A stretch of DNA of 45,117 bases from positions 149,657 through 194,773 of the forward strand of contig JBHLRS010000001.1 of NCBI GenBank assembly GCA_048882325.1, in the 5' to 3' direction. The stretch comes from Candidatus Thorarchaeota archaeon. Its GTDB lineage: Archaea; Asgardarchaeota; Thorarchaeia; Thorarchaeales; Thorarchaeaceae. A program made the translations under genes and the position numbers. Below are positions 1,450-19,042 of the stretch, piece after piece (the stretch's first letter is position 1; each line of letters starts with the position of its first letter). The notes beneath the pieces were generated by a model that saw only the letters and a list, made by a program, of their open reading frames with translations, was not told where the DNA came from and did not search any database.

Positions 1450-3390
1450 ATGGTCTTGAAACCAAAATACAATGAGAAACTCGCTGAGATATTTGGTGAC
1501 CGTCTACTTACAGAGAAGCATGAATTGGTTCTCTCGGCCTTAGACGTTGGGTCTTTACCAAAACAAGTGGGTTGGCTCATGAACACCACCCCTGACGCAA
1601 TTGTCCAACCGCTATCGCCGGAAGAGATCAGTGCTCTATACAAGTTCTGTCAGAAAACAAAGATTCCTTTAGTGCCGAGAGGAGCAGGGACCTCAGGTTA
1701 TGGAGGTGCCATACCTCGAAAGGGTGGAATTGTTGTTGACATACGTCGTATGAACAGAATCCTTGAAGTTGACGAGGAGAACATGACAGTCACTGTGGAA
1801 CCTGGTATCTCTTGGGCCAATCTTCAGTTTGAGTTGAATAGGAAAGGCCTGGATATTCGCTGCTATCCTTCCTCAGGTCTTTCAGCTACAATAGGTGGTT
1901 GGGTTGCTCAGGGAGGAGACGGTATCGGGTCTCTAAAGTATGGAAACGTCAACAAGAATGTTGACAAGATGGAAGTGGTTTTACCAACTGGTAAGATCGT
2001 CAAGACCCAAGACTGTGACTTATTCTGTGACACAGAGGGAATTCTTGGTATCATCACCAAGGTCACACTGAAGATCAAGACCCTCACTCCAATGAAGGTT
2101 GTCGTGTCCAGTTTCGAAGAAAATTATCAGATGGTGCTAGCAATCGAGAAGATACTCGAGGACGGACCGCTCCCCTTTACTATCAAGTTTGAAGAGTCCA
2201 AGTACACTGACCTCAAGAAGGCGATCTGGGAAGGTCATGGGCCATTCCCAATACCCGTGCATCATGGAACGATCATGGTTGTCTATGAGGGCGATGAGGA
2301 CGAGATAGAGGAGGGTGTAAGAGTAGTTGAGGAAGCCACCGAGATGTACAGGGGTGTCGTCTATGGCGAGGATGTCGCTGAACATGAATGGAATGACCGC
2401 TTCTACCCAATGAAAATCAAGAAGAAGGGACCGACCCTAGTTGTGGGTCAAGCATTCGCACCTTTAGAGAATCTCGCGGCTGTACTTGATGACTTCCAGT
2501 TCGAACAGGCTTCAGCAAAGGCTGGAATTGACGGATATGTAAACTCAAAGACCGGGGTTACCATGATGGGATACTTCCTGGAGGATGAACGAAGAAGATT
2601 CTACATGCTCTCATGGTCCCAGAGCTTTGTCATATTCAAGATTGCACAACGTCACGGCGGACACGTACACTCAACGGGAATCTGGTTCGCCAATTACGCT
2701 TCGCAGTACTTTGGCCAACAACGATTGGCACGTATTCGAGCTGCCAAAATCAAGTGGGACAAGAGGGAGATATCCAATCCCGGAAAGATTTTCGCGTATT
2801 GGCTCCCATTCATACTTAGGATTGGCAAGTACTTTATGTGGATATTCTTCGACCTATTCCGAAATGGCTTTGGTCGAATCGCACCTATACTTCTCAAGTG
2901 GCTGCAGAACGTGCCTCCTCTGAAGTGGATGCTCAGATGGGGCAGGGCTCACAGTCCATGGCCGATGCAATACGGCATCGGCTGCTGCATGGTCGACGGT
3001 GCCGCAGGAATTGCACCTCGATGGGACTTTGAGAGGTTCGGTATGCTCCCGCTCTTTGGGCCACGTCAGACCGATGTGCTGTGGATCTCAGGTTCACTGA
3101 CCAAGAAGATGGCTCCACGACTCAGACGTATCTATGAGCAGATGCCTGAGCCCAAGTACGTCATCGCATTCGGGCAGTGCGTCGCCTCTGGTGGTCTCTT
3201 CTGGGAAGGGTACAGTCTCCAAACACCACCTGACACTGTTGTGCCTGTGGATGTCTATCTTCCAGGCTGTCCTCCAAAACCTGCAGACTTCATCAGGGCG
3301 CACCTGATTTTGCAGAACAAGATACGTGCAGGGACAACCCACTGGCAGAAGAAATACGAGAATCAAGACGCGATGGGGATGATACAATGA
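1450..3390 (+). CDS. nuoB: Fusion of a GlcD/D-lactate dehydrogenase-like FAD-linked oxidoreductase (N-terminal ~446 aa) with complex I subunit NuoB (C-terminal ~150 aa)
   Basis: N-terminal PCMH/VAO-type FAD motifs: PDAIVQP, VPRGAGTS, ATIGGWVA, TEGILGIITKVTLK, NPGK. C-terminal NuoB motifs: GIGCCM (tandem Cys), PRQTDVLWISG, RIYEQMPEPKYVIAFGQC, DVYLPGCPP. One uninterrupted frame. Confidence 0.92.
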   Translation: MVLKPKYNEKLAEIFGDRLLTEKHELVLSALDVGSLPKQVGWLMNTTPDAIVQPLSPEEISALYKFCQKTKIPLVPRGAGTSGYGGAIPRKGGIVVDIRRMNRILEVDEENMTVTVEPGISWANLQFELNRKGLDIRCYPSSGLSATIGGWVAQGGDGIGSLKYGNVNKNVDKMEVVLPTGKIVKTQDCDLFCDTEGILGIITKVTLKIKTLTPMKVVVSSFEENYQMVLAIEKILEDGPLPFTIKFEESKYTDLKKAIWEGHGPFPIPVHHGTIMVVYEGDEDEIEEGVRVVEEATEMYRGVVYGEDVAEHEWNDRFYPMKIKKKGPTLVVGQAFAPLENLAAVLDDFQFEQASAKAGIDGYVNSKTGVTMMGYFLEDERRRFYMLSWSQSFVIFKIAQRHGGHVHSTGIWFANYASQYFGQQRLARIRAAKIKWDKREISNPGKIFAYWLPFILRIGKYFMWIFFDLFRNGFGRIAPILLKWLQNVPPLKWMLRWGRAHSPWPMQYGIGCCMVDGAAGIAPRWDFERFGMLPLFGPRQTDVLWISGSLTKKMAPRLRRIYEQMPEPKYVIAFGQCVASGGLFWEGYSLQTPPDTVVPVDVYLPGCPPKPADFIRAHLILQNKIRAGTTHWQKKYENQDAMGMIQ

Positions 3391-4696: not shown

Positions 4697-5164
4697 ATGA
4701 TGCAGGTGGAAGATAGATTATTTGCCCTTTTCATCCCTGTTTTGATTTGGGCTCTTTTGGCAGTGGTCCTTGTTGTTGTGATGCTCCTTGCATCCTGGGT
4801 ATTGCGACCGCATGTCTTACAAAACTCTGAGAAGACATCTTCCTATGAATGTGGTGAGGAACCTGTGGGACCTGCTCGCATCTCGTATCCGTATAATTAC
4901 TTCATCTATACTGTCCTTTTCGTGGTTGTAGATGTGATGGGGGCATTTCTCTGGCTCATCACTGCTTCAGACATACTTTGGGAAAGTGGTGCTGAAACTG
5001 TTCTGTGGCAACTCACAATTTTCGTTATGATTGTCATGGGCGGAATTGCTTATGTCATGAGAAATCTCCCTGATGCAGCGTTGGACGGGAAGGAAACCCT
5101 TGAAGTCTACCGAAAGGCCAAGGCTGAGAGAGAGCAAGAACAGCATATTGTAGGGGGTCACTGA
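4697..5164 (+). CDS. nuoA: Complex I-like subunit A
   Basis: Three TM helices, KTSSYECGEEP loop, YTVLFVVVDV. Confidence 0.92.
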   Translation: MMQVEDRLFALFIPVLIWALLAVVLVVVMLLASWVLRPHVLQNSEKTSSYECGEEPVGPARISYPYNYFIYTVLFVVVDVMGAFLWLITASDILWESGAETVLWQLTIFVMIVMGGIAYVMRNLPDAALDGKETLEVYRKAKAEREQEQHIVGGH

Positions 5165-5166
5165 TC

Positions 5167-5817
5167 ATGCTACAAAGTGTAAGTGAATTTCTTGATGCAA
5201 TGGAACCAGTAGAGTTTCTTCTGATTGCAGGAGTAGTGTTAGTACTTGCCTATCTTGCCCTCGAACACAAAGAGATAGTCTATGCAGCATTCTTCTTTGG
5301 CTTTATGGCGTCCTTTGTGGCTGGGTTCTTCCTCCTCCTTGAAGCACCTTTCATTGCAGGGATGCAGATTGCCGTCTATACTGGTGGTATTAGTGCACTC
5401 ATTATTTTCGCAGTACTACTTCTTCCGAGAGCACAAGATTCCTCTCTGGAAATATTTACAACTCCTCGAAAACGTCAGGTAGGACTCCTGATGGCTGCCA
5501 TGGTAATGATACTTTCAGGTATCCTTGCATTGATTTTCCCATGGGCTGAGTCATTTGAACAGTCCTTAATTGAGGTATCAAACGACCTGAATGAACTTGC
5601 TAGGTGGCTATGGTCAGACGGTGGCATCTATGTTCAGATGATTGGTCTGATCATGATCACATCATTGGTTGGTGCCATTGCACTTCTGAAGATGGACAAG
5701 GCTGAACAACTATCTTCAATTAAAGGTGAGTTTGGGATAGAAGCTGTTCTCGAATTTGAAGAATTGGAATCTGTCGATGAGGAATCGACGCCTATAGATG
5801 AGGAGGTGGATGACTGA
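5167..5817 (+). CDS. nuoJ: Complex I-like subunit J
   Basis: APFIAGMQIAVYTGGISALIIFAVLL motif; five TM helices; acidic tail. Confidence 0.88.
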   Translation: MLQSVSEFLDAMEPVEFLLIAGVVLVLAYLALEHKEIVYAAFFFGFMASFVAGFFLLLEAPFIAGMQIAVYTGGISALIIFAVLLLPRAQDSSLEIFTTPRKRQVGLLMAAMVMILSGILALIFPWAESFEQSLIEVSNDLNELARWLWSDGGIYVQMIGLIMITSLVGAIALLKMDKAEQLSSIKGEFGIEAVLEFEELESVDEESTPIDEEVDD

Positions 5818-6128
5818 TGGTCCCACTATCTTGGTATCTTGTCCTCTCATTCATGATGATTGGCTTAGGAGGTTATGGCATGATGGTCAAGAGAAACCTC
5901 ATCAGGATTCTCATTGGTGCTGAGATCATGGGTAATGGAGTCAACATTGCTCTTGTAGCTATGTCTCTCTATAGCCCCTCGTTTTCATTCACTGGTCAAG
6001 GATTGATAATACTCATCATTTCTGTTGCAGCAGCACATACTGCCTTGGCTCTAGTTCTGATGCTGATGTACAACCGTCGTTATGATACGGTGGATCTTGG
6101 ACAACCAATCAAAACGGAGGAAACATAG
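5817..6128 (+). CDS. nuoK: Complex I-like subunit K
   Basis: KRNLIRILIGAEIM...GQ...VAAAHTALAL; three TM helices. The second conserved Glu (AAAE) is His here. Confidence 0.92.
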   Translation: MVPLSWYLVLSFMMIGLGGYGMMVKRNLIRILIGAEIMGNGVNIALVAMSLYSPSFSFTGQGLIILIISVAAAHTALALVLMLMYNRRYDTVDLGQPIKTEET

Positions 6129-6635
6129 ATGTCAACAATTGGCAGAGCCATAATCAACAAAGTTCCTGAAGTGACTTCCAATCCGTTGGGTGAAAATAAG
6201 ATAGAGCTAGTTGTTCCGGTTGAGAAGATTCGAGATGTTGTCACGATTATTGAGCAGGAGCTTGAAGATGCATTACCCGAATCTGTGTTTGGTGTAGACC
6301 TCGAGAATGACAAATATGAACTCATCTACATCTTCTGGTCGTGGTCCACTCGGCAGCTAGTTCAACTAAGAGTTGCTCTCGAGGGAGAGAAACCTGAGAT
6401 TGAGAGTGTTTGTGACATATTTCCTGGACTCGAATGGCATGAAAGAGAATTCAGAGAGATGTTTGGAATAGACGTTAGGAATCACCCAGACCCACGGCTC
6501 TTTTTACTACCAGATGAACTCGATGGAGCATATCCAATGCGCAAGCGGTTCAAGACAGACCAAAGTAGACTTCAGGAGACCGGCATTGCACCTCCAAAAC
6601 CTCGACCTAAACCGGAAGGAGGTGACAGCCAGTGA
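6129..6635 (+). CDS. nuoC: Complex I-like subunit C
   Basis: WHEREFREMFGI...HPDPR...YPMRK motif. Confidence 0.92.
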   Translation: MSTIGRAIINKVPEVTSNPLGENKIELVVPVEKIRDVVTIIEQELEDALPESVFGVDLENDKYELIYIFWSWSTRQLVQLRVALEGEKPEIESVCDIFPGLEWHEREFREMFGIDVRNHPDPRLFLLPDELDGAYPMRKRFKTDQSRLQETGIAPPKPRPKPEGGDSQ

Positions 6636-7768
6636 GCCCTGACATTCTTGACGAAGCAATGGAAATCTGGTTCGGTCCTCAGCATGTATCTGCTCACGGT
6701 TGGGCCACCAAATTGACCTTAGTGGGTGACTACATCGTGGAGTGTGACCCGAATGCCGGTTACTTCCACAGGTCTGCTGAGAAAGTCCTTGAGTTCAAGA
6801 ACTTCAGACAAGGTTCACTTGTTCTAGAAAGGATGTGCATGCTTGAAGCATTCCTTGCTGAGCATCCCTATGTTGCGGCTGTCGAGAAAATCGCTGAGAT
6901 AGATGTTCCTGAACGTGCCAAAGTCATGAGGACAATCATGATGGAATTGTCACGACTTCACAGCATCCAGTTCTGGTGGGGCCAATTCAACGCTGAGTTA
7001 GGATTCTTCACAATGGCACTCTGGCCATGGGTTGACCGAGAATATTCACTAGATGTATTTGAAGAGCTTACGGGCTCACGACACACGGTATCCTTCTCGA
7101 CTCCAGGTGGTGTGAAGTACGACTTTAATGACAAATTCATGGACAGACTCCACAGAGCTGTTGATCGATTCGAAGATCGCTTGGCTAAATTCAGAGATAT
7201 GCAGATGGGTAGTCCGACATTTCGAGCGAGAACTGAGGATATCGGTCTCTATGATTATAAACAAGGACTCAAGTGGGGACTGAGTGGTCCTCCGATAAAA
7301 GCATGTGGAATTCCTATGGATCTGAGAAAGGATGATCCAGATCCGAATCTTGCGTATGATATGGTTGACTTTGAGGTTCCTATTACTGAGAATCCGGAGC
7401 ATCCTGGTCAGAGTGACGCTCTCGACAGAATGGAACAGAGGTTCAAGGAAGCTGAGGTTGCTGTCGATATTGTGAAGCAGCTCCTACCCCAGATTCCTGA
7501 TGGTCCAATAGTAGATCCAAAAGCTCGGGGAAAGGCAAACCGACTTCCTGAAGGAGAAGCCTATGCTCGAATTGAAGGAACACGTGGTGTCACTTCATTA
7601 TGGCTTAAAACACAAGAAAAGGCACAGACTGCGTATCGAGCAAAGATACGCGGACCATGCATCGCCTCATACTATGCATTGAAAGATTTGGTGCCCGGTT
7701 CGAAGTTTGCTGACTTTATTGTAATATTTGGAAGCCTAGATCCTTATCCGGGGTGGTGGGATCGCTGA
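6632..7768 (+). CDS. nuoD: Complex I-like subunit D (no NiFe-binding CxxC pairs)
   Basis: GPQHVSAHG, GYFHRSAEK, ELSRLHS, EELTGSR, PGGV, DLRK, EGTRG, RGP, terminal DR. GTG start overlaps the nuoC stop. Confidence 0.9.
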   Translation: MSPDILDEAMEIWFGPQHVSAHGWATKLTLVGDYIVECDPNAGYFHRSAEKVLEFKNFRQGSLVLERMCMLEAFLAEHPYVAAVEKIAEIDVPERAKVMRTIMMELSRLHSIQFWWGQFNAELGFFTMALWPWVDREYSLDVFEELTGSRHTVSFSTPGGVKYDFNDKFMDRLHRAVDRFEDRLAKFRDMQMGSPTFRARTEDIGLYDYKQGLKWGLSGPPIKACGIPMDLRKDDPDPNLAYDMVDFEVPITENPEHPGQSDALDRMEQRFKEAEVAVDIVKQLLPQIPDGPIVDPKARGKANRLPEGEAYARIEGTRGVTSLWLKTQEKAQTAYRAKIRGPCIASYYALKDLVPGSKFADFIVIFGSLDPYPGWWDR

Positions 7769-7779
7769 TGGGAGGTGTC

Positions 7780-8928
7780 ATGTTGCAGTTCGACTTCTTC
7801 GCTTGGCTTTCTGGAATTCCTCAATGGCTTGAGGATTTCCTCTTGCACTTGTGGACAATTGCAAAAGGCATAATCTGGTGGATTTGGGGAATCATCCAAT
7901 GGATCTGGAGCGCAATCTTTGTTCCTAGGAATTTCTTCTTCCTTTTCAGAGCAGTTCTCTTTCCGGGGCTTGTATTTGTTATCATGGCTCTGATATGGGC
8001 TGTTTGGTTTACACGCAAACTTTGGGGCAGAATCCAAGACAGACGTGGTCCAGTTCATATGGGTAAATATGGAGGACTTCAGCTCTTTGCTGATGCCATC
8101 AAATTGATTGCAAAAGAAACCATAATTCCTGAAAAAGCCAAACGTTGGATGTTCAGGTTCCTTCCAGGACTCCTGCTAGTGATTGTCCTATTGCCTTTCG
8201 CCTTCATCCCGTGGGACACTGTTTCCGCGGTAGATGGAGGATGGGCAATTGCTGACCTCTCAGTCAGTCTTGTACTTGTGTTCGCATTCCTGACAGCTGT
8301 ACCAGTAATCGCTCTGATGGCAGGATGGGTCAGTGGGTCGAAATACACGTTGATTGGTGGATTTAGAGCTGCTAACAACCAGTTCGCTGCAGAGATACCA
8401 ATGATCATCTCCACAATCGGTTGTGCTTTCCTAGCTCGTTCACTAAGTGTGTATGAAATCTCAATGGGTCAGACGGGTATTTGGTATGGAATCCTTCTCC
8501 CGATCAATCTGGCAACTTTCTTGGTTGCTGCAATCGCATCTGTGGGAATCTTCCCCTTCGATGCTCCTGTTGCAGATTCCGAGATCATCTTTGGTTGGAG
8601 GACTGAATACACTGGCATCTACTTCACCCTGACTTATTTTGCAGAGTTTGCTGAGCAAATGCTATACTCGGCTCTCATCGTTGCACTATTCTTGGGTGGT
8701 CCGAATGGGTTCACATTCCTTCCAGGTCCAGTCAACTTCATCATCAAGTTTCTGATCACTTTCTTCTTCTTTGTCCTGGTGAGTTCATCGTTCCAGAGAC
8801 TCAGACAGGACCAGATTGTCCACTACTGCTGGAAGTACCTACTTCCACTAGCAATACTGAACGTCATCGTCATCATGTTCGCGGTAGTCTACTTCCCTGG
8901 ACTGATGGCTGCATTGGGGGTTGGTTAA
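7780..8928 (+). CDS. nuoH: Complex I-like subunit H
   Basis: RKLWGRIQDRRGP, GGLQLFADAIKLIAKE, SKYTLIGGFRA, PFDAPVADSE, TEYTG, RLRQDQ. Start moved to ATG 7780 behind a GGAGGTG RBS-like motif. Confidence 0.92.
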   Translation: MLQFDFFAWLSGIPQWLEDFLLHLWTIAKGIIWWIWGIIQWIWSAIFVPRNFFFLFRAVLFPGLVFVIMALIWAVWFTRKLWGRIQDRRGPVHMGKYGGLQLFADAIKLIAKETIIPEKAKRWMFRFLPGLLLVIVLLPFAFIPWDTVSAVDGGWAIADLSVSLVLVFAFLTAVPVIALMAGWVSGSKYTLIGGFRAANNQFAAEIPMIISTIGCAFLARSLSVYEISMGQTGIWYGILLPINLATFLVAAIASVGIFPFDAPVADSEIIFGWRTEYTGIYFTLTYFAEFAEQMLYSALIVALFLGGPNGFTFLPGPVNFIIKFLITFFFFVLVSSSFQRLRQDQIVHYCWKYLLPLAILNVIVIMFAVVYFPGLMAALGVG

Positions 8929-8931
8929 ACA

Positions 8932-9363
8932 ATGGGATTCTTCAGCGTACTAGGTGACTGTTTTCAGATACTGAAACACACATTCAGACAAGTCTTCATG
9001 AGACCGTTCACGTACTTCTACCCCTTTGAAGACCGGATATATCCGGAGCGGACAAGAGGCAGACACATCCACGTTCGTGAGAACTGCACAGCCTGTTCAC
9101 AGTGTGTCAAAGCCTGTCCAGTAATTGCTATCCGGATGGACAAGGAGGATAAGATGTTCGAGAAGGACTGCGCTTTGTACTTTGACTATACTCGCTGCAT
9201 TTTCTGTGGTCTATGTACTCAAGCTTGCAAGTTTGATGCTCTATTCCATACTCCAATTGTCGACTTGAGTGAGGGTGACCGTGAAGATCTCCTATATGGA
9301 CCAGACAAGATAGAAACACTTGACCGAGACCCACTGAAGTGGCGAGGGAGGGAGTTCCGTTAA
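8932..9363 (+). CDS. nuoI: Complex I-like subunit I (2x[4Fe-4S])
   Basis: TYFYPFE, RGRH, CTACSQCVKACP and CIFCGLCTQACK. Confidence 0.93.
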   Translation: MGFFSVLGDCFQILKHTFRQVFMRPFTYFYPFEDRIYPERTRGRHIHVRENCTACSQCVKACPVIAIRMDKEDKMFEKDCALYFDYTRCIFCGLCTQACKFDALFHTPIVDLSEGDREDLLYGPDKIETLDRDPLKWRGREFR

Positions 9364-10911
9364 ATGCAGCTCTTCGATCTTGCATCTATCCCATATGCAG
9401 CACTATCTCTTGCAGTGCTTTTCATTGGAGGTCTCCTGATCTATGCCCTCAAGGACAATTTCGCACACTCTGCAGGAAAGGTAGCTGTCGGATTTTCTGG
9501 AATCGCATCCCTCTTGATGGTCTATCCGTTCTACTTAATATTCTCAGACCCAGAAACACCCTATACTGAATACGCTACATGGTCTGGACTGTTAGAGCAA
9601 TTCGGTCTCAAGCTGGATGGTGTCGCCTTTCCAATCACATTTGCAGTTGTAGTTCTTGGTTTCCTATCAGTAGTCTATGCAGTTGGTTATACAGAGCATA
9701 GTGAGAACAAAGCCACCTTCTTCGCAAATCAGCTCTTCTTCCTGATGGGTATGCAATGGGTCACCCTAGCCACGAATTTAATCGAATTCTTCATCGCTTG
9801 GGAACTAATGCTAGTACCTAGCTACTTCCTAATCCTATTCTGGGGTCTGCCTGAGACCCGGAAGCGGACTGCCATGAAGTTCTGGCTGTACACACAGTCT
9901 GGTGCAGTGTGTATCATGGTTGGTTTTGGCATTCTGTACTCTCTAACTGGTTCTTTTGACTTGGCACTGATTCAACCAGCTATAGCAACTGTTCCTCTAT
10001 ATGCTCTGGTCCCAGGTCTTGGTATCACCTTTGAAACCTTGTTGAAAATTATCTTCCTTCTCCTTGCTGCTGGTTTTCTCGTAAAGATGGCAGTGTTCCC
10101 AATCCATTGGTGGCTCCCACCAGTTCACGCAGAGGCTCCTACGCCAATCTCAGTCCTGCTGTCTGGTGCGATGATTGAAACCGGTGCATATGCGTTAGTA
10201 CGTTTTGGGTCGCTCACACTATCGGTTGCTGCATATCAATTATCGATTTTTGTAGCTGGCTTGGGAGTTATCACCATGTTCTATGGTGGGTTCATGGCAC
10301 TGGCCCAGATTGACATTAAGAGACTCCTCGCATATTCGTCCGTTTCACAGATGGGATATGTGCTCTTCGCTTTGGGTGTCTACGCACCAACGGGTGCGGC
10401 AGGTGGAATGTTCCATCTCATCAATCACGCCTTCTCGAAGGGTCTCTTGTTTATGACCGCAGGTGCTGTCATTCATCAGACTGGACTACGTGACATCACA
10501 AAGATGGGCGGTCTCTCAAACAAGATGCCCATCACTGCTTTCGCAGCAGCCATAGGTATGATGAGCATTGCTGGTAGTCCACCTCTTTCAGGATTTGCCA
10601 GCGAGTGGATGATGTTCCTTGGTGGTTTTGAACGTGCAATTGATGGAGTCGCAATCGCGAGCCTCCCGTTCCTCATATTGACCATCATCGCGGTGTCAAG
10701 TTCAATCCTCAGTGCAGGCTACATGCTACGCTTCTTCTGGAAGGTCTTCCTAGGTCCTCATCCTGATGAGCTAGAAGACGTCAAGGAGAGTTCAAACTCC
10801 ATGACCATACCGATGATCATACTTGGAGTTCTCATTGTAATCTTTGGAATATTCCCAGGACTGGCACTTGATGTCATTGTCCCGGCAGTACAAGGAATCG
10901 TATACCCGTGA
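9364..10911 (+). CDS. nuoM: Complex I-like antiporter subunit M, copy 1
   Basis: WELMLVP, VKMAVFPIHWWLPPVHAEAP, KRLLAYSSVSQMG, GFASEW (NuoM-type Glu in TM12). No NuoL-type C-terminal extension. Confidence 0.82.
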   Translation: MQLFDLASIPYAALSLAVLFIGGLLIYALKDNFAHSAGKVAVGFSGIASLLMVYPFYLIFSDPETPYTEYATWSGLLEQFGLKLDGVAFPITFAVVVLGFLSVVYAVGYTEHSENKATFFANQLFFLMGMQWVTLATNLIEFFIAWELMLVPSYFLILFWGLPETRKRTAMKFWLYTQSGAVCIMVGFGILYSLTGSFDLALIQPAIATVPLYALVPGLGITFETLLKIIFLLLAAGFLVKMAVFPIHWWLPPVHAEAPTPISVLLSGAMIETGAYALVRFGSLTLSVAAYQLSIFVAGLGVITMFYGGFMALAQIDIKRLLAYSSVSQMGYVLFALGVYAPTGAAGGMFHLINHAFSKGLLFMTAGAVIHQTGLRDITKMGGLSNKMPITAFAAAIGMMSIAGSPPLSGFASEWMMFLGGFERAIDGVAIASLPFLILTIIAVSSSILSAGYMLRFFWKVFLGPHPDELEDVKESSNSMTIPMIILGVLIVIFGIFPGLALDVIVPAVQGIVYP

Positions 10912-10921
10912 GGTGATTAAG

Positions 10922-13237
10922 ATGTTGCTAGGTCTACCATACTATCTGATCCTCGTCATTCCACTTGGTGGCTCACTGCTAGTACCCCTCTTTGGAAGAT
11001 ACAGTGTGAAACTTAGAGACTGGGCTCCAGCAATCTTCATGGGTATCACTATGGTCCTCTGTTGGTCCCTCCTACCTGATATTGGACATGGCAATCCAAG
11101 TTGGGACTGGATTAATATTGTCATCAATGGAGAGGATGTTCTTGTTGTTCCATTTGGAATGCTCCTCGACCCCCTCTCTGTGATCATGGCTATTTTGGCA
11201 AGTACACTCTGTTTCCTCATCTATGTGTATAGCACCGAATACATGGCTCATGAAGGAGACCGTAGTCGATTCTTCTTCCTGATGTTAGCCTTCGGTGGTG
11301 GTATGCTTACACTTGTTCTAAGCGACAACCTACTGATTGCGTTTATTGGTTGGGAGATAATGGGCTTTTGCAGCTACGGTCTCATTGGATTCTGGAACGA
11401 CAAGAGGAATCCTCCAGAGGAAGACCCGACTGGATACGAGCAGACTAACCCAATTCTCCAATGGGAGAAAGAGGGAGACTACAACTCCTATGCAGGTACA
11501 AAGGCGTTTATCGTCACGAGAATTGGTGACGCGTTTATGCTAGGTGGTATTTTACTACTGTTCATGTTCACAGGCACATTCCTCTTCTCAGACTTGATGG
11601 ATCCTTTGACTGCTTCTAACGATTGGTGGGTCAACATGTCCTCCGCAGGTGTCTTGATTCCAGCGCTACTTCTCATCTTCTTGGGCGCAATTGGCAAGTC
11701 CGGACAGTTCCCGTTGCAGGTGTGGCTCCCAGAGGCTATGGCAGGTCCCACAAGTGTTAGTGCATTGATTCATGCTGCCACCATGGTGAAGGCTGGAGTC
11801 TATATCACCGCACGGTTCCTAGTCACGATAGTGAGTGCATCAGGAATCGAGGGAGAGATTGCGTCGCCAAGCACTGGTATCACAGCAGCCCAAGCTCTGG
11901 GCTTTGAAGCCGCACTGACCTTTTTCATAATTGTTTCAGTGATTGGTGCAATTACCGCGTTACTGACCGCGACAATGGGCATGGTGTCCAATGAGCTAAA
12001 ACAGATACTCGCTTTCTCAACTTTGTCACAGCTCGGATACATGATGTTGGCGCTCGGAGTGGGTGGTGTTCTACAAGCAGTTCCCGCACTGCATGAAACC
12101 TATAGTCATGCGTATTTGAGTGGCGTGTTACACGTTGTTTCACATGGAGCATTCAAGGCACTTTTGTTCCTCGCATCAGGAGCTGTAATTCATGCTGTGC
12201 ATACGAAATACATCTCAAAGATGGGTGGCCTTCGAAAGCACATGCGGAAGACATTCATAGTCATGTGGGTAGGTGTCCTCGCACTAGCTGGAATCCCACC
12301 ATTCTCGGGATTCTGGTCAAAAGACTCTATCATCGAATACACCTATGAGCTTGCTGCTCACTGGTACAATCCACTTGGATGGGTTCTATTCCTTTTTGCA
12401 GTGCTTGCTGCAGCCTGTACAATCTTTTACAGCTTCAGGTTGATGGGTTTAACGTTTTACGGACCATCAGAACATAGCTCTCACGACTCACATGATTCAC
12501 ATGAATCACATAGTGAAGAGAGTGAAGAGAGTGAAGAGAGTGAAGAGAGTGAAGAACATGAAGACGAAGTGCATCCCAACGATCATCATCAGACACCGCA
12601 TGATCCAGGACCAGCAATGATGGTGCCTCTTTACATCTTGGCAGCTTTCACAATCCTCGCCTTTGTTGTTTTTCCGTTCATCCAGAACATTGCACTTGGT
12701 GAGCCTGAAGCGTGGAGCGATATCATGTCCGAGATGATTCTTGCGAAGCTTACTATGCCTGGAATAATCCCGTTTGCGATCACCCTGGGGGCGTTAGCGG
12801 TTGGAGGTATTCCTGGTTACGTGATTTACATTAGGAACGCTGACCGACCGAACGCTATTATCGGTGACACTGGAATTAGACGCAAGATGTACAACCTCCT
12901 GAAGCACAGGTGGTACATCAATGAGGGATATCACTGGCTTCTCAACAAGTTTCTCAACTTTGCTGAGATGTGGCGTGTCAATGTGGACGACAAGGTCATT
13001 GATGGCATTGACTTCAAGTCTGCCGATGCAGCGATTGCCATATCAACAAAGGTGCGATGGTTCGACGACAATGTAGTCGACGGATTTGCAGAAGGTGTGT
13101 CCACACGGAGTGTAAGGACTTCTGAAACCGGGCTCGCAGAAACTCAGACTGGAAGAATCAATGACTATGTCAGCGTTGTGATGTTTGGAATTGGGATATT
13201 GGTCTTGCTAGCGCTGATTTCACTGGGGGTAATATAG
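10922..13237 (+). CDS. nuoL: Complex I-like antiporter subunit L with extended lateral helix
   Basis: WEIMG, RIGD, GKSGQFPLQVWLPEAMAGPT, HAATMVKAG, STLSQLG, HGAFKALLFL, FWSKD, then a C-terminal helix and QTG plus a final TM. Start placed at ATG 10922 behind GAGGTGA. Confidence 0.93.
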   Translation: MLLGLPYYLILVIPLGGSLLVPLFGRYSVKLRDWAPAIFMGITMVLCWSLLPDIGHGNPSWDWINIVINGEDVLVVPFGMLLDPLSVIMAILASTLCFLIYVYSTEYMAHEGDRSRFFFLMLAFGGGMLTLVLSDNLLIAFIGWEIMGFCSYGLIGFWNDKRNPPEEDPTGYEQTNPILQWEKEGDYNSYAGTKAFIVTRIGDAFMLGGILLLFMFTGTFLFSDLMDPLTASNDWWVNMSSAGVLIPALLLIFLGAIGKSGQFPLQVWLPEAMAGPTSVSALIHAATMVKAGVYITARFLVTIVSASGIEGEIASPSTGITAAQALGFEAALTFFIIVSVIGAITALLTATMGMVSNELKQILAFSTLSQLGYMMLALGVGGVLQAVPALHETYSHAYLSGVLHVVSHGAFKALLFLASGAVIHAVHTKYISKMGGLRKHMRKTFIVMWVGVLALAGIPPFSGFWSKDSIIEYTYELAAHWYNPLGWVLFLFAVLAAACTIFYSFRLMGLTFYGPSEHSSHDSHDSHESHSEESEESEESEESEEHEDEVHPNDHHQTPHDPGPAMMVPLYILAAFTILAFVVFPFIQNIALGEPEAWSDIMSEMILAKLTMPGIIPFAITLGALAVGGIPGYVIYIRNADRPNAIIGDTGIRRKMYNLLKHRWYINEGYHWLLNKFLNFAEMWRVNVDDKVIDGIDFKSADAAIAISTKVRWFDDNVVDGFAEGVSTRSVRTSETGLAETQTGRINDYVSVVMFGIGILVLLALISLGVI
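12479..12556 (+). repeat. In-frame 9-bp tandem repeats in nuoL (SHD/SHE units, then SEE x5)
   Basis: AGTGAAGAG x4 perfect (12512-12547) plus AGTGAAGAA, preceded by TCTCACGAC/TCACATGAT/TCACATGAA. Confidence 0.9.
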
Positions 13238-13238
13238 A

Positions 13239-14864
13239 ATGCAAGTAGATTTTGCCATAAACATCTTGAACTCGTTGCCATTCGGACCACTGGGATTCAT
13301 GCTACTTCTCCCCGTCGTTGCTGCCTTCATAGCTTATTTTGCAGGAAAAGGCGCTAGAGTGATTGCGCTTCTTGTAACCGCTGTTGAACTTGGGCTCTCA
13401 GCCTTGCTTGTCCTTGGTGTCAATCCAATGGCAATCGAGCAGACCACAATACAAAATGCTGGGATGCAATTCGTCGATGTCTTTGTTATGGGCACCATTC
13501 CAATTGGAGAGGACCTAACAACAAACTTTCAATTCATACTGGGAGTTGATGGATTATCAGCAGTGATGCTTCTATTGTCAAACCTAGTTGTGTTCATTGC
13601 AGCCATCAGTTCGAACCACATTCACAAGTCTGAAGGATTCTACTACTCCCTATTCCTACTGCTTCAGGTTGGTCTAATGGGTGTGTTCATGTCATTGGAT
13701 TTGATCGGCTTTTTCATCTTCTGGGAATTGGTTCTCATCCCAATGTTCTTCATCATTGGAAGATGGGGGGAGGAAGGCTGTGAACATGCAGCTGTGAAGT
13801 TCTTCATCTATACTCATCTTGGCTCAGCAGTTATGCTTGTTGCATTCTTTGTGATATACCTGATTGCTGGAGCTGAAAGAAACATCTACACCTTTGCATT
13901 GATTCAGCTCTCTGAAACTGGTCCTGAAGGTTTGAGAACACTCCTACCAACACTGGCACCAATGGTCCAGATCGGGTTTGCATTAGCCATCTTCATGGGT
14001 GCAGGAGTCAAGTTGCCAGTCTGGCCTTTACACAACTGGCTTCCATGGGCTCATGTTAAAGCTCCAACACCAGGTTCTGTTATACTCGCAGGTATCCTAT
14101 TGAAGATGGGCGGTTACACATTCATTCGACTTGGACTCTGGCTCGTGCCCAGTGCCTTTACACGATTGAGTATACCTTTCGCAGCTTTAGCCATCTTCAC
14201 TTGTATCTATGCAGCATTTACTGCAATGGCCCAGACCGATGTGAAAAGTCTCGTAGCGTACACATCAATCAACCACATGTCATGGGTTTTACTTGGTGTA
14301 GCTGTGGCATCATTCGCCATTGGTCTTGATCCTGCAGTTGCAGAGAACCTTCGCTTCATCAATGCCGCGAATCTTGCTCTTCAAGGTTCAATCTTCATGA
14401 TGTTCAGCCACGGAACAATCATCTCTGTAATGTTCATAATGGCCGGGCAGCTCAAATACTCTGCAGGCACACGACAGATTCCTGACATACAAGGTCTCAT
14501 GAACAAGGCACCTCGAATGTCAGCAATCCTTATTCTAGCATCATTTGCAGCCTTTGGTCTACCTGGGTTCAGTGGCTTCATTGCTGAAGCCCTTGTCATA
14601 TTTGGTTCAGTGGTTGTTTATCTCTGGGCTGGACTCATAACGTTCGGAATCTTTGTGACTGTCGGCTATGTTCTCTGGATGTTAAACCGAATGGTGTTCA
14701 GTGATCCGGATCCAGAGAAAGAGGTGTCTGAGGCACCATGGAGCGACCTCATTGCACCAATACTCATGATGATACCAGTCATCCTCTTGGGTGTATGGCC
14801 TGACCTGGTTCTTGACTTCACACAAGCTGTTGTTAACTTCATCATAGGAGGTATTGCACCATGA
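13239..14864 (+). CDS. nuoM: Complex I-like antiporter subunit M, copy 2
   Basis: FWELVLIPMFF, KFFIYT, VKLPVWPLHNWLPWAHVKAP, AGILLKMGGY, GLPGFSGFIAE. Confidence 0.92.
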   Translation: MQVDFAINILNSLPFGPLGFMLLLPVVAAFIAYFAGKGARVIALLVTAVELGLSALLVLGVNPMAIEQTTIQNAGMQFVDVFVMGTIPIGEDLTTNFQFILGVDGLSAVMLLLSNLVVFIAAISSNHIHKSEGFYYSLFLLLQVGLMGVFMSLDLIGFFIFWELVLIPMFFIIGRWGEEGCEHAAVKFFIYTHLGSAVMLVAFFVIYLIAGAERNIYTFALIQLSETGPEGLRTLLPTLAPMVQIGFALAIFMGAGVKLPVWPLHNWLPWAHVKAPTPGSVILAGILLKMGGYTFIRLGLWLVPSAFTRLSIPFAALAIFTCIYAAFTAMAQTDVKSLVAYTSINHMSWVLLGVAVASFAIGLDPAVAENLRFINAANLALQGSIFMMFSHGTIISVMFIMAGQLKYSAGTRQIPDIQGLMNKAPRMSAILILASFAAFGLPGFSGFIAEALVIFGSVVVYLWAGLITFGIFVTVGYVLWMLNRMVFSDPDPEKEVSEAPWSDLIAPILMMIPVILLGVWPDLVLDFTQAVVNFIIGGIAP

Positions 14865-16399
14865 TGCTTCAACTCGTAGATATCGCGAACCAAATTCGTG
14901 AATTACTTGAACCATTAAAGGATGTGTTACTTGACATAGTTCCTGCAAGCTGGCTCATGTCACTTCCTGCACTGACACTGGTTCTCTTCGCAATCTTGGC
15001 ATTAATCGTCGGTATGCGGTATAATCCGCTAGGACTAAGCTTCGTTGGTGTCTTACTTGCAGCTCTTGAGATGATAATCCTGAACCCTCTTGATTCTGAG
15101 ATTGCTGCCATTACAGGAGGAGTTTCGTTTGGACAGTTTGCCCGAGATCCTATGGCTGACTTGTTCATCTATATTATTCTGATAGTTGGTTTTCTGGTCT
15201 TGATGTCCTCAACTCTCTATGGGGGTGACAAGGGGCCATACAACTTCATGCTATTGATATCCTTCGCTGGCGCCATATGGGTCGTGATGGCTACTGATCT
15301 CGTGGGACTCTTTTTAGCGTGGGAATTGATGTCAACACCAACATACATACTTGTAGCATTAGGACCTGGTCGAGAAGCAATTGATGGAGCGACCAAGTAC
15401 TTTGTCATGGGACTTCTTGCAACAATGATGATGGTGTTTGGTATAGCCATAATATACGGGGTCACTGGTCAAACCAATCTTGTGGAGGTTGCAACTTATG
15501 TTGATGGAGTCTGGACTGGATCGACTCCAAATGCGGCATACACGATCCTTCTTGCAGTGGTCTTATTCATCGTTTCATTCGGATTCAAGGTGGGTGTATT
15601 CCCAGGATGGCAATGGGTGCCTGATGCTTATGCCAGTGCAGATGGGAGTGTTACAGCATACCTTGCCGGAGGTTCCAAGAAAACGGGAGTTGGTGCATTG
15701 ATGAGAATTCTCGTTGTAGGATTTGTCATCGCTCAGACTCAATGGACAGTCGTCATTGTTGGAGTGGCAATCCTCACAATGATTATTGGGAATGTACTCG
15801 CACTCGCTCAAAGGGACATCATGAGGATGCTTGCGTATAGTAGTGTTGCCATGATGGGATATCTCTTCATTGGCCTAGCATCAGCTATGAATCCCGTTGA
15901 TGTTCCGAGTACGACTGCATATACTCTAGGTGTAGGTGCAGCTCTCTTCATGGCATTCACCCATGCAATCATGAAGACCCCCGCATTCATTTTAGTGTGG
16001 GTTCTATCAATCGCTCTTTCGAAAAGAATTACTTATGATGACCTTGCTGGACTTAGCAAGAGAGCTCCACTTGCAGCGGGGCTATTCACCATTCTAATGT
16101 TATCCTTAGCTGGAATGCCTCTCACAGTCGGGTTCTATTCAAAACTGCTACTCTTCCTGAGTGCGGCAGCTGCAGGTATGTGGTGGCTCGCGCTGATTGG
16201 ACTCCTTAACTCAGTGTTCTCTTTGGGCTACTATTTGCGAGTCATAAGGTACGCCTATATGGAAAAAGCCACGGATGATACTAGTATCAAGTTGCCAACG
16301 GTTCCACTTGTGGCGGTAGTTCTCTGTGTCATCGCTGTGATTGGGCTATTCTTTGCTCCGTGGATAATCTTAGATTATGCGTATGCAGCTGTCCCATAA
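14861..16399 (+). CDS. nuoN: Complex I-like antiporter subunit N
   Basis: WELMSTPTYIL, KYFVMG, GFKVGVFP...WVPDAY, RMLAYSS, SLAGMPLTVGFYSK, YYLR. Confidence 0.92.
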   Translation: MMLQLVDIANQIRELLEPLKDVLLDIVPASWLMSLPALTLVLFAILALIVGMRYNPLGLSFVGVLLAALEMIILNPLDSEIAAITGGVSFGQFARDPMADLFIYIILIVGFLVLMSSTLYGGDKGPYNFMLLISFAGAIWVVMATDLVGLFLAWELMSTPTYILVALGPGREAIDGATKYFVMGLLATMMMVFGIAIIYGVTGQTNLVEVATYVDGVWTGSTPNAAYTILLAVVLFIVSFGFKVGVFPGWQWVPDAYASADGSVTAYLAGGSKKTGVGALMRILVVGFVIAQTQWTVVIVGVAILTMIIGNVLALAQRDIMRMLAYSSVAMMGYLFIGLASAMNPVDVPSTTAYTLGVGAALFMAFTHAIMKTPAFILVWVLSIALSKRITYDDLAGLSKRAPLAAGLFTILMLSLAGMPLTVGFYSKLLLFLSAAAAGMWWLALIGLLNSVFSLGYYLRVIRYAYMEKATDDTSIKLPTVPLVAVVLCVIAVIGLFFAPWIILDYAYAAVP

Positions 16400-16417: not shown

Positions 16418-17008
16418 CTACCTCTGGCGGCCAAGTCTTTCTTCTTCTTTTCTTACTGCGGTTTCAACACACTTCGTAAACATCTTCTCGATGTTTTCAC
16501 CTGTCTTAGCTGAGGTTTCAATATACTCAATGTCTTGCCAATGGCTGAACATCTCTCCAGCTGCGGGTGGAACAACTCGATCCTTCCTATCAACTTTGTT
16601 TGCCACTAAGATAACAACTGCATCTGGTGAGACTGCAATGAAATTGTCATACCAAGATGCACAGTTGAGAAATGTTGGAGGTCTGGTTACATCATATACG
16701 AGAAACGCAATAGATGCTCCTACCATGTATCTAGAGCGGAGATCCTTGTATGTGGGCTGACCCGCTAGGTCCCATAACACTATTTGAGCTGTGGCCTTTT
16801 CTCCTGGATAGACTTCGATATCTACATTTTTCACTGCGATGTTTGTCCCAATTGTTGCTTTATACGACTCACCGAAGCTGTTCTGTGTGTACCTCATGAT
16901 GCAACTTGTTTTGCCTACAGCCCCGTCACCCAATGCTACCATTTTTAGCACATATGCGGGACCTTCTGCTTCCAATACATACCCTTCCTTTGACGGAAGA
17001 TGGTGCAC
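16418..17008 (-). CDS. Rab-like small GTPase (Ras superfamily)
   Basis: G1 GDGAVGKTS, G2 YKATIG, G3 WDLAGQ, G4 NKVD, G5 ETSAK. No C-terminal Cys prenylation motif. Confidence 0.93.
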   Translation of the reverse strand: MHHLPSKEGYVLEAEGPAYVLKMVALGDGAVGKTSCIMRYTQNSFGESYKATIGTNIAVKNVDIEVYPGEKATAQIVLWDLAGQPTYKDLRSRYMVGASIAFLVYDVTRPPTFLNCASWYDNFIAVSPDAVVILVANKVDRKDRVVPPAAGEMFSHWQDIEYIETSAKTGENIEKMFTKCVETAVRKEEERLGRQR

Positions 17009-17071: not shown

Positions 17072-19042
17072 TTAGCAACCATTGGGGAGCTTTACGATAA
17101 ACCTAGTCCCCTGGGTGAAGTCTCCCTCAATCCGACCCTCTACTCTGATGCTACCAGAATATGTGTCTACAATTTGTTTGACCAACGTGAGCCCGACACC
17201 TGAAACTCTGTGAACTCTATCATCAATTCCTGTTAGTACGCTCTCTCTCAAACGGTCCTCAATTCCTTGTCCCCAATCCTCAAATTCGAATTGGAGGAAT
17301 TCACCATTATCTACCAAGTTGGTGGTCACATCTATTCGAACATCACCATTCAGTGTGAACTTCACAGCATTATGAAGGAGATTATAGAATACATCCTGAA
17401 GAAACTCATTTGCCATAATGCAATATTTGTTTGACTCAAGATTTGTTGAAATTGAGATACTCCTTTGTGGAAATGACTGCTTTACAGTCTGGATTGCAGC
17501 TGTTAGGGCTTCTGCTGGGTCTGTCTTCTCAAGAACGAACTCTTCTTGGTTCACCATGGAGAACTTCTTAACATTGTTAATAAGAGATACACTCCGGTTT
17601 ACTTGCATTAGAGCACTTCGTGCAATTCCTTTGAGATGCTCAGGGAAATCATTATCCTCTAGTATTAATTCAAGACTGGACATTATGCCTTGGTGAAGAT
17701 TGTTAATGTCGTGAGCCATCAAGTCTGACATCCAAATTGCACGAGCTCTTGCTTCTTCCCGTTGTTTTTCAGCTTCTACTTGATCAGTAATGTCAATTGA
17801 GAAACCACCAATAAGGGGTGCCCTCCCTTCTCTGATGATAGGGAATTTGTGAGTTCGAAAAGTACGGTGTTTTCCATCTTGAATACTTACTTGGACTCTG
17901 TCAATTGGTCCATCTTTCAAGACTTTCTGGTCTTCTTCGGTCAGTCGATCCGCACGTTCCTGCTTGAATAAATCCACGTTGTGCTTGCCTTCCCAATCCT
18001 CGGTTTGAGGTCGCCCCACCTGTTCTCGCATATACCTATTGATAAAAAGCACCCGTGACTTATCATCTTTGATATACACAGGACCAGGCATATGGTCTGC
18101 AAACGCCGTGAAACGATCCTTAAACTCTTCGAGTTCATCCTCCGTTCGCTTCCGCTCAAGGATTGTTGAGAACATTCCAGCTATAGTTGCAAAGACTGTG
18201 CGTTGTTCTTGATCCAGCGGTTTTGGTTCTTGAGCTGCTATGTTGATCACACCAAGAAGATTGTCTTCAGATCCGATGATTGGCCAGAATATTAGTGCGT
18301 GAATACCCAGTTCTCTTGCCCTTTTCATCCGATCCTTGCTTTCTGGTGATTTGTCTATATCTTCGGTAAATAATGGTGATTTTGTTCTTGCTGTACGTGC
18401 TACTAAGAAGTTTGGATCATCTAGCGGCACGACTTCAGGTGTTCCACCTTCTACCAATCCAATGTAAGCCATAAGGTGAAGTCCTTTTGTTTCAGGATTA
18501 AAGAGTCGTATTGTACCAAGATCAAATCCAAGGGTTTCAACAAGTCCGGTTAGTATCTGGTTACAAAGCTCCGGAACATCTTCACTACTGAGAGCAGCTT
18601 CCGCGACAATGCTGTAGGCCTTTCGTTCAGTGGAGATAGTTTCCTTTGAGAGTTCATCTCCTGTGACATCAATACCATAGGCGATAACATAGTTCTTTCC
18701 GTCAACAACTACAGAGTTAGCGGTTATTTCAAGGACAAAGGATTCTCCATTATTGTTTGTGAACCAGAAGCGGTTCTTGTCTGACTCCAATTTTCCTGAT
18801 CTACGATCAAGGAAGCTCGCGATGGCATCTTCTCGAATTTCTGGCTCGAGTACATTTGCAAAGTTCCTGACATCTTGTCCAATTGCTTGCTCTGGTATGA
18901 GGCCAACTGCATGTGCCAATGCGGAATTGGTGTAGACCACTTTTCCCTCGTGGCTGATGATGACTCCCTGCGGAGATGAATCAAACAGCAACTTCAGTAT
19001 ACTGCAATCAATTCCATCTTCCGAGTTCTGTGAGTCTTTCAC
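17072..19042 (-). CDS. Soluble PAS-GAF-PAS sensor histidine kinase
   Basis: H-box DLMAHDINN, N-box VFYNLLHNAVKF, G1 EDWGQGI, G2 SGVGLTLV. PAS- and GAF-like segments upstream; no TM helices. Confidence 0.9.
   Translation of the reverse strand: MKDSQNSEDGIDCSILKLLFDSSPQGVIISHEGKVVYTNSALAHAVGLIPEQAIGQDVRNFANVLEPEIREDAIASFLDRRSGKLESDKNRFWFTNNNGESFVLEITANSVVVDGKNYVIAYGIDVTGDELSKETISTERKAYSIVAEAALSSEDVPELCNQILTGLVETLGFDLGTIRLFNPETKGLHLMAYIGLVEGGTPEVVPLDDPNFLVARTARTKSPLFTEDIDKSPESKDRMKRARELGIHALIFWPIIGSEDNLLGVINIAAQEPKPLDQEQRTVFATIAGMFSTILERKRTEDELEEFKDRFTAFADHMPGPVYIKDDKSRVLFINRYMREQVGRPQTEDWEGKHNVDLFKQERADRLTEEDQKVLKDGPIDRVQVSIQDGKHRTFRTHKFPIIREGRAPLIGGFSIDITDQVEAEKQREEARARAIWMSDLMAHDINNLHQGIMSSLELILEDNDFPEHLKGIARSALMQVNRSVSLINNVKKFSMVNQEEFVLEKTDPAEALTAAIQTVKQSFPQRSISISTNLESNKYCIMANEFLQDVFYNLLHNAVKFTLNGDVRIDVTTNLVDNGEFLQFEFEDWGQGIEDRLRESVLTGIDDRVHRVSGVGLTLVKQIVDTYSGSIRVEGRIEGDFTQGTRFIVKLPNGC

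Follow-up and report, generated by a model that had tools for sequence, protein, structure and literature searches.

A complex-I-like operon was found on the + strand of the window, the 45,117-nucleotide stretch of DNA analysed here (Candidatus Thorarchaeota archaeon, assembly GCA_048882325.1, contig JBHLRS010000001.1). Its genes are ordered nuoA-J-K-C-D-H-I, nuoM1, nuoL, nuoM2, nuoN (Table 1), with two NuoM-type genes in one nuo operon, as in 2M complex I; the products of both (M1 and M2) fell in the M-type clade. NuoL, encoded between them, carries a lengthened lateral helix. The order nuoA-J-K-C-D-H-I was common to about 40 Thorarchaeota loci, and the operon is kept across about 40 Thorarchaeota species. 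The Pfam scan, which covered the operon genes, found no nuoEFG among them; NuoB (Oxidored_q6) was present only as the C-terminal part of an FAD-oxidase fusion at 1450-3390. Four Proton_antipo_M genes were found genome-wide (genome 3.6 Mb, 93% complete). All four lie in this operon, so there is no other complex to which M1 could belong.

The nuoL product matched solved NuoL/NdhF/Nqo12 chains (E down to 4e-78) and has the NuoL/ND5 family architecture, an antiporter core of 14 transmembrane (TM) helices followed by TM15, the lateral helix and TM16. The start at 10922 (ATG) agreed with the consensus N-terminus of 36 homologs, the stop being at 13237, and E145, K259 and K412 (TM5 Glu, TM7 Lys, TM12 Lys) were invariant in the homolog alignment. 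An AlphaFold2 (AF2) monomer of NuoL (predicted template modelling score 0.80, predicted local distance difference test score (pLDDT) 78.9) contained a continuous, straight 65-residue helix at residues 663-727, its pLDDT dropping below 60 beyond about residue 700. Before TM15, at 12470-12610, NuoL has a low-complexity loop, acidic and rich in His (HSSHDSHDSHESH, SEE repeats, HEDEVHPNDHH), with AF2 pLDDT below 50; its length varies among Thorarchaeota NuoLs, which are 729-844 aa long overall.

Helix length was counted between alignment anchor columns; a regular-expression measurement was dropped, having failed for one third of the sequences. The NuoL chains of E. coli, T. elongatus, M. smegmatis and chloroplast were used as references. 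From the Tyr of WYIN to the Gly of QTG, the window NuoL has 79 residues, E. coli NuoL 49, and three-pump Asgard NuoLs 51-53. An initial annotation of the window had proposed that the helix is lengthened to span a second NuoM, and had named alignment of the NuoL C-terminus as the check and a length equal to that of single-M homologs as the finding that would speak against it. In the alignment the window helix was 26 residues longer than those of E. coli and of the single-M homologs included. The difference is one clean block of 26-27 residues, absent from E. coli NuoL, from one bacterial single-M NuoL and from eight three-pump Asgard NuoLs, one of which belongs to a second complex of the same genus. 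The second complex of some Thorarchaeota genomes (loci L099 and L100) aligned ambiguously and was left unclassified.

Among 164 NuoLs (150 database representatives plus those of the loci described below), the helix fell into four discrete length classes of 25-26 (n = 9), 49-54 (58), 77-83 (86) and 103-106 residues (10), and it can therefore be read as a unit A followed by 0 to 3 modules. In a tree of the NuoL core the length class shifted many times, well-supported branches requiring 13 or more changes for the +26 class. Thorarchaeota NuoLs belong to an Asgard +26 clade that also takes in Heimdall-type and 'Asgardarchaeia' sequences; its sister group is the Asgard NuoLs of canonical length, and it is separate from the bacterial half of the tree. 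Within the canonical-length Asgard clade, the Hodarchaeota-type NuoL shows a separate module gain (+27).

Unit A of the window NuoL aligned to E. coli W539-R562, around D542/K551/P552, with W664/Y665/N667 nearly invariant. The first module, B1, was aligned by phmmer to the lone VDYNVVDG module of T. elongatus NdhF1 and resembles the lone module of Asgard three-pump NuoLs. The second, B2, is collinear with FDRRIIDG of chloroplast NdhF and with M. smegmatis NuoL 573-604, and B2 through TM16 as a whole is collinear with M. smegmatis NuoL 573-625. HMMER placed both B1 and B2 on the lone module of T. elongatus NdhF1, a solved chain. E. coli NuoL P564, L565 and N566, the residues closest to NuoM (PMC3274701), fall at the start of the B module. 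The amphipathic moments of units A, B1 and B2 were no higher than in shuffles and were hence uninformative.

Table 1. Operon genes and parts of the NuoL lateral helix in the window (window positions, + strand).
Feature	Position	Strand	Description
nuoA-J-K-C-D-H-I	4697..9363	+	directly upstream of nuoM1; Pfam family match for each gene
nuoM1	9364..10911	+	515 aa; M-type pump upstream of nuoL; Pfam Proton_antipo_M, 6.6e-70
nuoL	10922..13237	+	771 aa; distal antiporter-like subunit with lateral helix; Pfam Proton_antipo_N, Proton_antipo_M
Lateral-helix unit A	12911..12982	+	WYINEGY..., aa 664-687; present in all NuoLs
Module B1	12983..13060	+	VDDKVIDG..., aa 688-713; first 26-residue docking module (putative)
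Module B2	13061..13138	+	FDDNVVDG..., aa 714-739; second 26-residue module
QTG motif and TM16 anchor helix	13145..13222	+	T743/G744 nearly invariant; AF2 helix 745-767
nuoM2	13239..14864	+	541 aa; canonical NuoM; Pfam Proton_antipo_M, Oxidored_q5_N
nuoN	14861..16399	+	512 aa; Pfam Proton_antipo_M

The two modules share the motif [VF]-D-[DN]-x-[VI]-[IV]-D-G. DDKVIDG (D689-G695), starting at 12986, recurs as DDNVVDG (D715-G721) at 13064, exactly 78 nt or 26 codons later, and both copies are followed by QTG (13145-13153) and the last TM helix (13154-13222); the motif positions, their spacing and this order are as the initial annotation gave them. Its term "exact 26-residue duplication" holds for the period of the seven-residue motif and not for the unit: between B1 and B2 only this motif and one Ser match, and identity over the unit (6/26 residues, 30/78 bases) was no better than at control periods, so an exact duplication is the wrong description. 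In 44 of 44 distinct relatives of equal helix length, which come from independent assemblies, the h-h-D-G motif occupied the two positions that it has in the window, 26 residues apart. The in-register profile score reached z = 4.2 (p ~5e-5, column permutation), the window sequence alone giving p = 0.0013. The conserved register and this score place the recurrence beyond chance.

Both M1 and M2 keep the M signature of TM5 Glu, TM7 Lys and TM12 Glu, and the nuoN product carries TM12 Lys. The key residues of M2 (E/K/K/H/H/E) follow the E. coli NuoM pattern. Those of M1 are E/K/E/Q/H/E, the TM8 Lys being replaced by Glu (codon 10177-10179), a Glu that recurs in the M subunits of a number of Asgard three-pump complexes (L082, L086, L090). 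Trees of the pump subunits were rooted on L; they are quick maximum-likelihood trees with few bacterial operons. M2 grouped with bacterial NuoM and N with bacterial NuoN (support 100 each), while M1 grouped with the M subunits of Asgard three-pump complexes and the L core with Asgard L (support 97). An approximately unbiased (AU) test rejected a clade uniting M1 and M2 (delta lnL 180.6, p = 3.8e-5); this grouping had been named after the tree was seen. The NuoM phylogeny that the initial annotation had proposed as a test of independent origin thus makes M1 and M2 deep paralogs. A second M arising by local duplication of nuoM was ruled out by the trees and the AU test. In bacterial L-M-M-N loci both M subunits fell inside the bacterial NuoM clade, which indicates that the Thorarchaeota four-pump state is of separate origin.

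Operon context was taken from genome and metagenome loci rather than from the 150 database representatives (among which P0005, P0008, P0009 and P0022 are Asgard long-helix proteins), and Asgard loci were counted if at least 1.5 kb was present on both sides of the pump-gene cluster. In these operons helix class for the most part follows pump-gene number (m denotes the Asgard type to which M1 belongs). The shortest class occurred with two pumps (L+m, 5 loci), the canonical helix with three pumps of the Asgard type (23 loci), +26 with m-L-M-N (28 loci: Thorarchaeota, L073/L182, L085, L214) and +52 with m-m-L-M-N (3 loci: L202, L206, L207). The order M1-L-M2-N and the long helix were kept together in all Thorarchaeota loci, as they were in Heimdall-type loci and in further Asgard ones. 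Among the exceptions were the Hodarchaeota-type L+m loci L076, L078, L195, L196 and L221, at +27 with two pump genes, and the three-pump locus L100, scored +26 from an ambiguous alignment. The Hodarchaeota-type loci consist of nuoL and one m-type gene, away from other nuo genes; in one such genome, G031, a different contig carries two further pump genes, giving four over two loci.

The three m-m-L-M-N loci (L206:2844-10991, L207 and L202:2922-11203) each have five contiguous antiporter-like genes, about 30% identical pairwise, and a NuoL helix of three modules and 106 residues. Judged from sequence, they are candidate five-pump complex-I-like enzymes.

We consider the enzyme of the window to be, more likely than not, complex-I-like, without an NADH module, and with a four-pump membrane arm in which a two-module NuoL clamp helix spans the extra pump. 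The arm would most likely be ordered N, M2, M1, L. The lateral helix would act as a clamp made of a constant unit A and repeated 26-residue docking modules B, each opening with a D-x-x-h-h-D-G kink motif and corresponding to about 39 Å of helix. Canonical three-pump enzymes would have one such module and the window NuoL two, so that its helix could cross one more pump before the last TM helix anchors beside NuoN. M1 and M2 would both lie beneath the helix, with B1 docking on M1 and B2 on M2. With both M subunits built into one arm, as the initial annotation had supposed, a further ion may be moved per cycle. The +26 length, the motif pair, the order M1-L-M2-N, the retained charged residues and the parallel between modules and pump genes support the four-pump arm.

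A number of observations weigh against it. M1 lacks the TM8 Lys, although the Glu that it shares with the M subunits of Asgard three-pump complexes marks a subfamily rather than a defect. Helix and pump number disagree in the m-L-M-N loci L083, L210 and L211, which have a +52 helix, and in the L-M-N locus L212, where +52 means three modules for three pump genes. The likeness of B1 and B2 in the window rests on seven residues, identity being at the background level of the control periods, and the AF2 monomer is unreliable in the distal helix and was kept out of geometry arguments. Long helices also occur with a single nuoM, a finding that the initial annotation had held would count against it: outside the lineage, 9 of the 11 bacterial +26 loci with full flanks are K-L-M-N with one nuoM and 1 of 11 is L-M-M-N (these metagenome loci were ranked by likeness to a +26 query and are a non-random sample), and three Asgard L-M-N loci of one family (L199, L215, L220) are +26 as well. 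A long helix by itself therefore does not identify a second bound M. These loci also favour another account, in which the helix was inherited from an L-M-N ancestor, covering a non-pump element or nothing, and M1 is a later arrival, possibly on the outer face of L or loosely attached. M2, N and the NuoL tail are indeed of the complex-I type that shows the +26 state, and B2 resembles bacterial modules. The NuoL core, however, groups with canonical-helix Asgard three-pump NuoLs and not with those of L-M-N type; modules rise stepwise with pumps, from 2 to 5, in operons with m-type subunits; and the Hodarchaeota-type NuoL gained its module separately, one such genome having four pumps. We regard an inherited helix unrelated to M1 as unlikely. 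That the motif pair is a product of chance or of assembly, without structural meaning, would agree with the control-level identity of the units, but it is refuted by the conservation of the pair across relatives from independent assemblies, by the permutation result and by the discreteness of the length classes, and is given almost no weight. For the Thorarchaeota lineage, the reading as a four-pump arm with a matching long helix is likely to be right.

Several of the discordant loci have further features. L083 (6955-13727) combines a three-module helix with four pump genes, and no further pump gene adjoins its nuoN. The bacterial K-L-M-N +26 loci are L102, L104, L111, L113, L114, L115, L123, L128 and L161; in L111, L114, L123 and L128 a second, convergent L-M-N set lies directly downstream.

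The second module would have come either from an old 78-nt tandem duplication or from two nuoL genes recombining. Members of this family do gain single modules by tandem duplication, as fresh 26-residue duplications are present in relatives: the database NuoLs P0036, P0010 and P0021 showed adjacent modules with 21/26 and 15/26 identical residues and, in P0021, a near-identical 27-residue pair. In the window NuoL such a duplication would be old. B1 scored 16.3 against the Asgard module and 9.0 against bacterial modules, and B2 scored 14-26 against bacterial modules and 9 against the Asgard one. Five residues after QTG, Tyr was found in 30 of 30 NuoLs with complex-I-type M/N partners, the window included, and Asn in 17 of 22 NuoLs with only m-type partners. 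These patterns hint at a chimeric NuoL or at co-evolution of the tail with NuoN. If NuoL is chimeric, B2 would have been acquired when an Asgard-type and a complex-I-type nuoL recombined unequally, one module out of register, so that m and the L core were joined in a single event to B2, TM16, M and N. The split of the trees, with M1 and the L core on the side of Asgard three-pump complexes and M2 and N on that of bacteria (the AU test separating M1 from M2), is consistent with this, as is the collinearity of B2-TM16 with M. smegmatis NuoL. The segments are nevertheless too short for a tree, a tail co-evolving with NuoN would yield the same pattern, B1 against B2 scored 18.8, as high as B1 against the Asgard module, and the trees have the sampling noted above; we hold recombination to be possible but less likely than not.

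A wider proposal, offered tentatively, is that the helix serves as a modular ruler in which 0-3 docking modules of 26-27 residues, repeatedly gained by tandem duplication, set or follow the 2-5 pumps of Asgard complex-I-like enzymes, and that the Thorarchaeota arm is a mosaic of a hydrogenase lineage (m and the L core with B1) and a complex-I lineage (B2, TM16, M and N), which a single recombination within the helix may have joined. In operons whose pump genes are too few for a long helix, two positions may be filled by the product of one gene.

The design itself is already known from 2M complex I (Chadwick, Hemp, Fischer and Orphan, 2018, ISME J 12:2668), for example Nitrospira CI_1; particular to the present case are the heterologous M subunits, the M-L-M-N order, the Asgard series from two to five pumps and the exceptions to the rule. 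As summarised in PMC9040806 and PMC6606698, 2M complex I has a second NuoM-type gene and a helix insertion of about 26 residues, lacks NuoEF, and was proposed to move a fifth ion per cycle. The link between an extra nuoM and an insertion of about 26 aa, which the initial annotation had attributed to Chadwick et al., is confirmed by these two citing papers. The window shares with this type the second NuoM-type gene, the NuoL helix longer by about 26 residues and an operon without NuoEF. It differs in gene order, since metagenome loci fitting the Nitrospira 2M description so summarised (L138 and L139, without nuoH) are L-M-M-N, and in that both M subunits of those loci lie in the bacterial NuoM clade whereas M1 is of the Asgard m type and has Glu in TM8. 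Compared with 2M complex I as described there, the enzyme belongs to an Asgard archaeon and its NuoB forms a fusion with a flavoenzyme. The literature search found no paper linking Asgard archaea with two NuoM, the 2M clades of Chadwick et al. lying outside the comparison.

A 26-aa insertion in the C-terminal amphipathic helix was also reported for the five-pump Complex_I_3 of Ca. Manganitrophaceae (Yu et al., 2022; PMC9040806), and similar insertions were noted there in complexes without extra pump genes. Complex_I_3 resembles the window in having this insertion alongside extra pump subunits, but its helix is borne by an MrpD-like subunit in an arm of five pumps, against NuoL and four in the window. 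It was the only published five-pump case found with which L202, L206 and L207 could be compared. The lateral helix of canonical NuoL/Nqo12/ND5/NdhF (E. coli 3RKO; T. elongatus 6HUM) has, like that of the window, unit A, a kink of the D-x-x-V-V-D-G type, QTG and TM16; it has one B module (49-54 residues) where the window has two (79), and is otherwise collinear. Asgard group-4 hydrogenase-like complexes with a full lateral helix (Valentin-Alvarado et al., 2024; PMC11291895) belong to the same phylum as the window, whose L core and M1 have their closest relatives in the L and m-type subunits of these complexes. Their pump genes number three (K-L-m-m) and their helix is canonical; the window adds complex-I-type M2 and N and one module. 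A recent preprint described shorter arms in Heimdallarchaeia complexes; the Asgard operons with four pumps, and with five in relatives, add to that account.

The series of 2-5 pumps and 0-3 modules is a natural test of the lateral helix as a clamp of fixed register. In complex-I-type enzymes the number of pumps sets the ions moved per electron pair, and hence the redox couples that can be used or driven in reverse. Long helices with too few pump genes mean that the published rule of a longer helix for an extra pump gene is not applicable from sequence alone.

In most Thorarchaeota loci the fusion of FAD_binding_4 and FAD-oxidase_C to NuoB is kept upstream of the operon. Directly downstream of nuoN, on the opposite strand, the window encodes a Ras-family small GTPase (16418-17008, - strand), and beyond it, also on the strand opposite to nuoN, a PAS/GAF histidine kinase (17072-19042, - strand).

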